A stretch of 1,046 nt of DNA, taken from assembly GCF_003334305.1 (NCBI RefSeq), contig NZ_QOWS01000063.1, one strand, 5' to 3'. Positions within the stretch are counted from its first letter, which is position 1. Each line of letters starts with the position of its first letter. Source of the stretch: Escherichia coli. GTDB taxonomy: Bacteria > Pseudomonadota > Gammaproteobacteria > Enterobacterales > Enterobacteriaceae. Positions 1 to 1,046 of the stretch are shown here, piece by piece. A program made the translations under genes and the position numbers. The notes under the pieces are model-generated. The model saw nothing but the letters and a program-made list of their open reading frames with translations. It made no database searches and was not told the origin of the DNA.

Positions 1-92
1 GGCGCGCCAATTCTTACACCTGCCGAACCCTGGACAATGGGACCGCCATACTGAGTCATATCTCCCTGACGCGCCGCTGGTTTTCCGCTCAT
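1..92 (-). CDS. rhs: Rhs-family protein with N-terminal PAAR domain, first 30 codons only (3'-partial; continues beyond the left edge). Likely a T6SS cargo toxin carried on the VgrG tip.
   Basis: Seen in sequence: ATG at 92..90 (minus strand) opens a frame reading MSGKPAARQGDMTQYGGPIVQGSAGVRIGA(P) with no stop before the window edge. It contains a literal P-A-A-R tetrapeptide at residues 5-8 followed by a GG-x-I-x-x-GS-x-x-V-x-IG pattern typical of PAAR-domain starts. From memory this N-terminus matches that of Escherichia coli Rhs core proteins; the specific paralogue cannot be assigned from 30 residues. It lies 66 bp downstream of the vgrG stop on the same strand. This ORF is absent from the supplied track because it is short and runs off the edge. 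Confidence 0.85.
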   Translation of the reverse strand, partial: MSGKPAARQGDMTQYGGPIVQGSAGVRIGA

Positions 93-99
93 GATTCAA

Positions 100-105
100 T
101 TCCTT
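100..105 (-). promoter_or_regulatory. Shine-Dalgarno sequence for the rhs start codon
   Basis: Minus-strand AAGGAA (plus-strand ttcctt at 100-105) sits 7 nt upstream of the ATG at 92..90 (spacer ATTGAAT), a good match in composition and spacing to an enterobacterial ribosome-binding site. Confidence 0.55.
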
Positions 106-158
106 CTTCTGTTTATTTTTAATGCTTGTTTGTTACTGAATACCGAACAGGTACGGGA

Positions 159-1046
159 TCAGTACTCTCTCATATCCGGCGTATCCTGCTTTTCATCAGG
201 GGTCTTCGGTGGGGATTTCGAGGCTGCACAGTTCCAGTTAATCAACAGTGAGTCACCATTAACCTGCTCCTTACCCTGCAAATGAATTTTTGTGCCGTTG
301 AGAAAAATTTGTCCGTCCTTCGTCAGCACCAGCCTTGCCTTACCACAGCAGAGCTCCAGATGCTCACCGGCGGAGTAAATCGCGGTCTGCCCGGTATCAT
401 CCTTTTTCGTTTTACCAACGGTGAAGGTAACGTTATTTCCGACTTTGACGTCATAACCCAGCCCGACCCTCAACGATTTATGCAAACCGATCTGCGAGGA
501 CTGCATCAGAGCCACCGAAGTGTTCATAATGCCACCTACCGTCGTCTGGTACGCCACGCCCACGGTCAGCGCACGAACAAGTCCAATCGTTTCCACCTGA
601 ACAGAACCCACGTTAATGATCTGGTTACTGCCCACCGTCTCTATCTGGTTAACGCCCACCGTCTGTATCTGATTGTTGGTAACCGCAATCATCTGATTGT
701 TGCCAATGGTCTCAGCATGGTTGTTTATCACATCCGTGGTGCGGTTATTCAGCACCTCGGTGTTCATGTTCTTCTGCGCGTGGATGTAGACCTGTTCTTT
801 CCCTGTCGCATCGTCAAACTTCAGTTCATTAAACCCGCTGCCCTTATAGGTTTTCGAACGAATGGTCATCTGCGTCTTTGTTCCCGGCAGGCTGCCGGGT
901 GTGCGGTTTTCCTGGTGGTAGGTACGCCCCATAATAATCGGCTGGTCCGGATCGCCGTTGAGGAAGTCCACAATCACCTCCTGACCCACACGCGGTATCG
1001 CCAGGTGGCCAAAACCGGTGCCTGCCCACGCCTGTGCCACACGGAT
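159..1046 (-). CDS. vgrG: T6SS spike protein VgrG, C-terminal portion (5'-partial; N-terminus lies beyond the right edge). Stop codon TGA at 159-161.
   Basis: Seen in sequence: the 293-aa ORF 159..1040 stays open to the window edge (codons 1041-1046 read I-R in frame; codon 1038-1040 is GTG, so the track's M is an internal Val). The translation contains the VgrG/gp5 OB-fold region motif (R)VAQAWAGTGFG...PRVGQEVIVDFLNGDPDQPIIMGRTY, then regularly spaced Val-Gly octapeptide repeats (TTDVINNH/AETIGNNQ/MIAVTNNQ/IQTVGVNQ/IETVGSNQ/IINVGSVQ/VETIGLVR) typical of the gp5-like beta-helix, then a ~100-aa C-terminal region ending ...SKSPPKTPDEKQDTPDMREY*. Family assignment is from recalled knowledge of VgrG/Rhs-associated vgr proteins; no search was run. 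Confidence 0.92.
   Translation of the reverse strand: MRVAQAWAGTGFGHLAIPRVGQEVIVDFLNGDPDQPIIMGRTYHQENRTPGSLPGTKTQMTIRSKTYKGSGFNELKFDDATGKEQVYIHAQKNMNTEVLNNRTTDVINNHAETIGNNQMIAVTNNQIQTVGVNQIETVGSNQIINVGSVQVETIGLVRALTVGVAYQTTVGGIMNTSVALMQSSQIGLHKSLRVGLGYDVKVGNNVTFTVGKTKKDDTGQTAIYSAGEHLELCCGKARLVLTKDGQIFLNGTKIHLQGKEQVNGDSLLINWNCAASKSPPKTPDEKQDTPDMREY
573..740 (-). repeat. Intragenic 24-nt (8-codon) tandem repeats encoding the VgrG gp5-like beta-helix, seven units
   Basis: Seen in sequence: consecutive 24-nt units at 573-596, 597-620, 621-644, 645-668, 669-692, 693-716 and 717-740 each encode an octapeptide ending in Q/H/R with V/I-G spacing. Units 621-644 (ctggttactgcccaccgtctctat) and 645-668 (ctggttaacgcccaccgtctgtat) match at 21 of 24 positions. 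This is a coding repeat inside vgrG, not an independent element. Confidence 0.7.

Follow-up and report, generated by a model that had tools for sequence, protein, structure and literature searches.

A vgrG-rhs junction at the RhsE locus of Escherichia coli: probable part of an orphan type VI secretion cargo module with a short Rhs N-terminus

Background

A stretch of Escherichia coli DNA of 1,046 nucleotides (contig NZ_QOWS01000063.1; "the window" below refers to this whole stretch) carries the end of a vgrG gene and, on the same strand, the first codons of an rhs gene. The junction raises the questions of what the two genes form together, whether they serve a type VI secretion system (T6SS), how the Rhs protein is held on VgrG, which toxin it carries beyond the left edge of the window, and whether any of this is new. 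A preliminary description, made from the letters of the window, had read it as a VgrG-Rhs module whose Rhs protein has a PAAR domain, and had placed a variable toxin, an immunity gene and any novelty further to the left.

Islands in E. coli that combine vgrG with Rhs effectors have been described (PMC6730261, PMC7216683) and the systematics of the rhs genes has been treated by Jackson et al. (2009, PMC2935791). We report that the window very probably spans the point where vgrG and rhs meet in an orphan cargo module that serves the E. coli T6SS and lies at the RhsE locus. The module is already known and annotated, and the window and its extensions hold nothing new in kind.

Results and discussion

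Distribution and chromosomal site

The window was compared with 5426 complete E. coli genomes using megablast. It was matched in 4050 of these; 2713, about half of all genomes compared, contain 80% or more of the window, and four match it at 100% identity (strains A7, A28, DETEC-E601, below E601, and NCTC9088); since so many complete genomes match, the junction is not a chance resemblance. The median number of matching places per genome is three, and the genes therefore belong to a multi-copy vgrG/rhs family. In RefSeq they carry the names "type VI secretion system tip protein VgrG" and "RHS element core protein".

All four exact matches are flanked by yncH and by pptA/yddH/nhoA/narZ. The interval between yncH and pptA/nhoA is what we take to be the classical site of the RhsE element, where E. 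coli K-12 presumably keeps only an rhsE pseudogene. Fragments of insertion sequences (ISAs1, IS1) are scattered through the RhsE locus of the exact-match genomes.

The VgrG protein

On the minus strand, the vgrG open reading frame (ORF) enters the window at its right edge (1046) and runs as far as a TGA codon (Table 1). Its translation is identical to the corresponding part of the 702-aa VgrG WP_064503131.1 (residues 408-702; A7, A28 and NCTC9088), and each of the four exact-match genomes has an intact vgrG. The full-length protein from these genomes scored 627.5 bits against TIGR03361 (cut-off 186.35) and 446.9 bits against TIGR01646 (cut-off 121.8), and the Pfam matches were Phage_GPD (3.6e-74), Phage_base_V (3.4e-15) and Gp5_trimer_C. 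It hence has the gp27-like hub, the gp5 OB-fold and the gp5-like beta-helix of the VgrG family and lies above the curated NCBIfam cut-offs.

The portion present in the window comprises the end of the OB-fold domain, the beta-helix and a C-terminal extension of roughly 80 residues without domain assignment. Within the beta-helix, the DNA that encodes the Val-Gly octapeptide repeats (VgrG residues ~533-550) is itself repeated in tandem with a period of 24 nt (619-671, minus strand; 2.2 copies, 89% matches, Tandem Repeats Finder). Pfam placed no domain past VgrG residue 621. The tail is rich in Pro, Lys and Asp and ends SKSPPKTPDEKQDTPDMREY, and its final residues are unlike those of the paralogous VgrG encoded in the main T6SS cluster of A7 (see below). 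We infer that residues 622-702 could be a candidate docking or specificity region for the N-terminal piece of the cognate Rhs protein.

The spacer and the start of rhs

The distance of 66 bp between vgrG and rhs on the same strand (spacer 158..93) and the 30 visible Rhs residues were both given exactly in the preliminary description. A Shine-Dalgarno sequence, AAGGA, is present at 105..101 (minus strand), 8 nt upstream of the ATG at 92..90, and the translated start, MSGKPAARQGDMTQYGGPIVQGSAGVRIGA, is identical to that of RefSeq genes named "RHS element core protein". The rhs gene of the main T6SS cluster is also preceded by a similar spacer, ending AGAAGGAATTGATTC.

Scanning the window for promoters and terminators gave no sigma-70-like promoter and no site resembling an intrinsic terminator, and vgrG and rhs are therefore probably co-transcribed. 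An RNA element in the spacer was considered and ruled out, as the window had no Rfam match at E <= 1 and neither promoter nor terminator sites. Two plus-strand ORFs (91-285, 64 aa; 126-251, 41 aa) run antisense over the spacer and the 3' end of vgrG; they are most likely spurious, because they are unannotated in every matching genome.

An intact Rhs protein behind vgrG in strain A7

In A7 the rhs gene continues from the exact-match window without interruption and encodes 1417 aa. Against the NCBIfam model RHS_core, for which the cut-off is 2000 bits, residues 1-1257 of the protein scored 2675.8 bits, and YD_repeat_2x matched in seven stretches. In Pfam it showed DUF6531 at residues 46-123 (2.9e-18), RHS and 14 RHS_repeat matches at E <= 0.01, and Rhs_assc_core (TIGR03696, 1.9e-23) covers residues 1180-1257. 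The demarcation motif is DPIGL at residue 1231, within YDPLQGRYITQDPIGL, with a second motif, D.LGL, at 1253. The YD repeats and the DPxGL-type motif expected upon leftward extension are thus both present. Compared with solved Rhs cages, the A7 protein gave E = 4.6e-122 for Tse5 of Pseudomonas aeruginosa and E = 4.5e-90 for RhsA of P. protegens, the weakest listed shell being at 1.5e-44.

Beyond the core, the last 160 aa (residues 1258-1417) form the tip, and a small ORF of 149 aa downstream of rhs, named "RHS element protein dsORF-h1" in RefSeq, is the candidate immunity gene. The Rhs core, the tip and dsORF-h1 have G+C contents of 63.6%, 36.0% and 32.9%, respectively, the classical signature of a composite Rhs element. 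The expectation that a toxin tip and an immunity candidate lie off the window, to the left of the same-strand vgrG-rhs pair, is hence borne out by the A7 extension.

The toxin tip of the A7 type and its immunity candidate

The A7 tip has an HExxH motif (HEFAH at residue 1341 of Rhs), of which H84, E85 and H88 in tip numbering are invariant among 17 homologues; the stretches QSPALGLGHE..HA and EE.RV...E..AAKTL.E..R are likewise invariant across this alignment. The Pfam model of peptidase family M91, PF14891, aligned with the tip itself along 60 of its 176 positions (E = 0.002-0.0065), and among the 17 homologues it matched ten at E <= 0.001 and all at E <= 0.1 (best 6.6e-9). Homologues from Hafnia alvei (43-45% identity, E about 1e-22) are named "M91 family zinc metallopeptidase" by NCBI. 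An AlphaFold2 model of the tip had a mean pLDDT (predicted local distance difference test) of 88 and a pTM (predicted template modelling score) of 0.86, and the fold is that of the zincin proteases. On the basis of homologue names, invariant motifs, PF14891 matches and the model, the tip is predicted to be a minimal, distant HExxH zinc endopeptidase resembling M91 and the botulinum light chains (M27 neighbourhood). In a sequence search of solved structures with the tip, only the Rhs core part was matched. The identity of the tip as Tox-MPTase4 (Rhs-CT1) was rejected, there being no PF15640 match in Pfam.

The tip together with dsORF-h1 was found in 1083 of the 5426 complete genomes (about 20%), in 1027 of them with at least 99% identity. 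dsORF-h1 begins with a signal-peptide-like sequence, MMKYLMVLLSLFSGSVLG, and no Pfam or NCBIfam family matched it, even at E <= 10. VgrG2b is a T6SS metallopeptidase toxin that acts in the periplasm (PMC6899460); in view of this analogy and of the signal peptide of dsORF-h1, the tip probably acts in the periplasm of the prey. It may be a 160-aa protease that cleaves a bacterial substrate there and is neutralised by a secreted immunity protein.

A broken rhs1 and a second, intact rhs2 in the other exact-match strains

In A28, E601 and NCTC9088 the vgrG-linked gene (rhs1) equals the A7 gene for the first 662 nt and then belongs to a different core subfamily. Past nt 662 the identity between the two is about 66-89% at the nucleotide level per 150-nt window over the core and 41-57% over the tip, i.e. 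there are two unrelated tips at one locus. Moreover, at codon 713 the rhs1 gene of all three strains contains the 7-mer ACGGTGA twice in tandem; this duplication leads to stops at codons 727-728, and rhs1 is flagged as frameshifted in each by PGAP (the Prokaryotic Genome Annotation Pipeline of NCBI). Deleting one 7-mer in silico gives an rhs1 ORF of 1402 aa with a glycine-rich tip.

In E601, rhs1 and dsORF-e4 are followed by an IS1 fragment, an ISAs1 pseudogene, a gene for a 150-aa hypothetical protein, a DUF3969 gene, rhs2, dsORF-h1 and pptA; A28 and NCTC9088 have the same order within the first 15 kb inspected. The rhs2 gene of E601, located about 7 kb downstream of rhs1, is intact (1420 aa) and has the same HEFAH tip and dsORF-h1 as A7. 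Each of dsORF-h1 and dsORF-e4, the latter being the immunity candidate of the rhs1 tip, begins 11 nt past the rhs stop. The composition of the rhs1 tip makes a membrane-active toxin possible; as a separate observation, the tip is reminiscent of glycine-zipper pore formers such as the C-terminal toxin of Tse5 (Tse5-CT).

The window ends before codon 713, upstream of the site at which A7 (intact) and A28, E601 and NCTC9088 (frameshifted) differ in reading frame. For the genome from which the window comes, the chances are about even that its rhs is a pseudogene through the 7-bp duplication and that the working effector is rhs2 downstream. A28, E601 and NCTC9088, three of the four exact matches, carry the allele and were assembled independently from different sources; the PGAP flag, the ORF regained on removal of one 7-mer and the intact rhs2 with dsORF-h1 downstream agree with such decay. 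However, rhs is intact in A7, the remaining exact match, the window itself stops short of the codon concerned, and the duplication is rare: a 94-bp probe across it matched 3173 genomes, 13 of them at >= 99% identity vs about 2519 in the 90-95% band. The matches listed from this band (92.6% or 91.5%) all span only 87 bp of the genome, and the duplication is therefore absent from them. The allele is thus rare overall and frequent among the closest relatives of the window. A pseudogene interrupted by stops had been named in the preliminary description as what would speak against an Rhs cargo toxin; this is the state of the gene in three of the four genomes, and in A7 the cargo reading stands.

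The A7 gene is chimeric. Comparison of L001:12955-17208 (A7) with L003:7955-12170 (E601 rhs1) and L007:2147-6409 (rhs2) showed 100% identity with rhs1 over nt 1 to ~660 and essentially complete identity with rhs2 from nt ~750 onward. The pattern fits a deletion of ~7 kb through recombination between the tandem rhs1 and rhs2 genes, an event that would place an intact effector directly behind vgrG in A7.

The cassette formed by the ISAs1 pseudogene, WP_000960005.1 (150 aa), the DUF3969 gene and rhs is present at the RhsE locus in E601, NCTC9088 and A28, and the same cassette was observed inside the T6SS cluster of A7 close to aspV (L003:13085-14936 vs L006:41821-43899). As it is shared by the two sites, whole rhs cassettes seem to move between Rhs loci.

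A short Rhs N-terminus with one PAAR-like motif

The 30 Rhs codons in the window constitute most of the flexible part of an N-terminal piece of 47 residues: the DUF6531 plug begins at residue 46, and the PVNP site opens at P48. From residue 48 onward the protein aligns with the shell chain of Tse5 (8cp6_B), starting at the first residue of that chain (PVNPMLG). Tse5 has a 5-kDa N-terminal fragment, residues 1-47, that is cleaved off between K47 and P48, residues 30-47 being anchored inside the shell and 1-29 being disordered (PMC10684867).

Is the piece a PAAR domain, as the preliminary description had it? Pfam PAAR_motif (PF05488) matched residues 3-20 only (E = 0.28), which correspond to positions 52-69 of the 70 in the model. 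Alignment with solved structures was confined to the last 27 residues of the PAAR protein 4JIV (93 aa; E = 0.67) and the last 27-28 of the PAAR-like 9RCE (E = 0.12), and the 47 residues ahead of the plug are about half of the 93-99 residues of the matched PAAR proteins. In P. protegens RhsA (7Q97), residues 147-180 align non-significantly with residues 2-32, and the part that matches the plug (238-340) lies downstream. A full PAAR domain of three repeats was therefore rejected on the strength of a single motif and these E-values, and the term "PAAR domain" gives way to one PAAR-like motif in a 47-residue piece. That the N-terminus nevertheless is a true and complete PAAR domain, capping the VgrG tip as one folded cone, we consider very improbable. 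The literal PAAR motif and the pattern GD...G.IV.GS..V.IG do resemble one PAAR repeat, and reviews commonly label the E. coli proteins "PAAR-Rhs" (PMC6730261), but the Pfam match extends over 18 residues, the structural matches are confined to the ends of 4JIV and 9RCE, and only 47 residues precede the plug, of which the Tse5 counterparts 30-47 are buried in the shell.

Because there is one PAAR-like motif, 47 residues precede P48 and the alignment with 8cp6_B starts at P48, the E. coli Rhs protein is assigned, by sequence comparison, to the Tse5-type class with a short N-terminus. The class that depends on prePAAR and an Eag chaperone (EagR/DUF1795) was also considered. No Eag (DUF1795) gene is annotated nearby in A7 and none would fit into the 66-bp spacer, and the 47-residue piece has neither a long hydrophobic stretch nor a transmembrane segment; this class was rejected for these reasons.

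With respect to attachment, three Rhs N-termini might jointly form a PAAR-like cone, or the N-terminal piece might bind the 81-residue C-terminal extension of VgrG. Only tentatively do we suggest that the piece docks on VgrG in a way not described before and/or that the A7 tip is a miniature M91 protease acting in the periplasm.

The T6SS apparatus of A7 and a proposed mechanism

A7 has a T6SS cluster next to tRNA-Asp (aspV) and yafT with tssA, B, C, E, F, G, H, J, K and M, and also a DotU-type tssL, tagH, vasI, a gene with a VasL domain and two hcp genes, followed by a vgrG and an rhs of its own. No core gene carries a pseudogene flag. Between the orphan VgrG and its counterpart in the cluster the identity is 90% over the full length, and between the orphan Rhs and that of the cluster it is 88% up to residue 1311; given these identities, we infer that the orphan pair is a paralogous extra "warhead" for the aspV machine.

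In a possible mechanism, the steps of which are borrowed from the homologues Tse5, P. protegens RhsA and Tre23, the VgrG trimer would form the spike and the 47-residue PAAR-like piece would attach the Rhs cage to it. The cage would enclose the tip, which would be freed by aspartyl autoproteolysis at the DPxGL motif; contraction of the sheath would drive the complex into a neighbouring cell, and the adjacent immunity protein would shield sister cells.

The module could instead be a silent relic that is never fired, its host having no working T6SS or keeping the system repressed. E. coli K-12 has no working T6SS. The T6SS of E. coli is often repressed in vitro according to the abstract of PMC13141884, and ISAs1 and IS1 fragments lie at the locus; both would fit a relic. 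Against this, the T6SS gene set of A7 is complete without a flagged core gene, and the vgrG ORF is intact in four of four exact-match genomes, and we regard a silent relic as unlikely.

Several points weigh against an active cargo module, the reading that we prefer: the N-terminal piece expected to dock on VgrG does not qualify as a PAAR domain, a frameshift breaks the vgrG-linked rhs in all exact matches but A7, the match of the tip itself to M91 is weak, and the immunity candidate dsORF-h1 has no family match. Moreover, among the exact-match genomes the T6SS core genes were examined in A7 alone, and secretion, dependence on VgrG, toxicity and immunity are predicted from homology.

Table 1 Features of the window and of the RhsE locus of E601
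Feature	Coordinates	Strand	Remarks
3' part of orphan vgrG ("vgrE" position)	159..1046	minus	codons 408-702 and TGA at 161..159
gp5-like trimerisation beta-helix, VgrG residues 467-576	540..869	minus	Pfam Gp5_trimer_C, E = 5.6e-26
VgrG C-terminal 81 residues, 622-702	162..404	minus	beyond the last Pfam match
vgrG-rhs spacer, 66 bp	93..158	minus	AT-rich, 34.8% G+C
rhs 5' end	1..92	minus	ATG 92..90, 30 codons and 2 nt; translation MSGKPAARQGDMTQYGGPIVQGSAGVRIGA
Single P-A-A-R motif, Rhs residues 5-8	69..80	minus	from the translation
7-bp duplication, rhs1 codon 713 (DETEC-E601)	L003:10091-10104		likewise in L002 and L004
rhs1 tip (E601)	L003:11700-12170		glycine-rich: GGHAGLGVAFA, GHAGIGGGINAA, VGGGVGGHFA
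dsORF-e4, immunity candidate of the rhs1 tip	L003:12182-12577		starts MKKYIFLVLFLLCGC; lipoprotein-like signal (LLCGC)

Comparison with known systems

The RhsE element of E. coli with its upstream vgr occupies the same site and is built alike, with a core rich in G+C, a tip rich in A+T, a small ORF that follows and remnants of ISAs1 (the H-repeat). There is no difference in kind between it and the module described here; core subfamily and tip vary by strain. The names dsORF-h1 and dsORF-e4 are of the Hill type and already in use in RefSeq, so that both tips are named there and the novelty that had been anticipated further to the left was not found.

Among solved relatives the best, and the closest in architecture, is the VgrG1c (VgrG4)-Tse5 pair of P. 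aeruginosa (PA2685-PA2684; PDB 8CP6). Common to both are the 47-residue N-terminal piece with one PAAR-like motif, the plug (DUF6531) with PVNP.LG at P48, the YD shell and the DPxGL end, and in both the gene adjoins its cognate vgrG with neither an Eag chaperone nor a transmembrane segment. They differ in the residue before P48, which is Lys in Tse5 and Asn in the E. coli Rhs, and in the tip, a pore-forming toxin in Tse5 whereas that of A7 has a zinc-protease fold. Autoproteolysis at both ends and VgrG-dependent secretion are known for Tse5 (PMC10684867).

The VgrGO1-EagR-Rhs-CT islands of E. coli (Ma et al. 2017), so far as the summary in PMC6730261 describes them, also have an orphan vgrG, an Rhs effector with a polymorphic tip and an adjacent immunity gene. 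Unlike the islands in that summary, the module described here lacks eagR/DUF1795, its vgrG and rhs being only 66 bp apart, and the tip is not Tox-MPTase4.

By description, two further systems resemble the A7 module in that an Rhs protein with a C-terminal, HExxH-containing M91-like tip lies downstream of vgrG without EagR. In Shiga toxin-producing E. coli (STEC) O22:H8, the "PI2" island encodes an Rhs-Peptidase M91, identified by bioinformatics only and with a substrate stated to be unknown (bioRxiv 10.1101/2024.03.05.583533); it has two tandem rhs genes, as do E601 and NCTC9088. A PAAR-RHS-M91 protein of SPI-19 in Salmonella likewise is known from bioinformatics only (PMC8867033); its immunity candidate is a membrane protein of 110 aa, whereas dsORF-h1 is a 149-aa protein with a signal peptide.

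Compared with botulinum light chains (M27), the A7 tip is short (160 aa vs 390-436 residues in the chains matched), and its sequence identity with NleD (M91), botulinum light chains and the metallopeptidase domain of VgrG2b is 12-19%. Its predicted route of delivery is an Rhs cage, not a type III secretion system or an AB toxin.

Conclusions

Thousands of E. coli genomes contain the junction, already annotated, and its locus is among the earliest Rhs/vgr loci to have been described. The docking and M91-like tip readings, if true, would concern an already catalogued family and would not be peculiar to the window. The M91-like protease tip at this locus is widespread, with about 20% of complete E. 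coli genomes carrying it, but uncharacterised. Finally, the RhsE locus shows the evolution of Rhs in compact form, with tips and cores swapped between strains and one copy decayed by a frameshift, and the deletion in A7, consistent with rhs1/rhs2 recombination, would represent a further step in which vgrG is re-joined to an intact effector.

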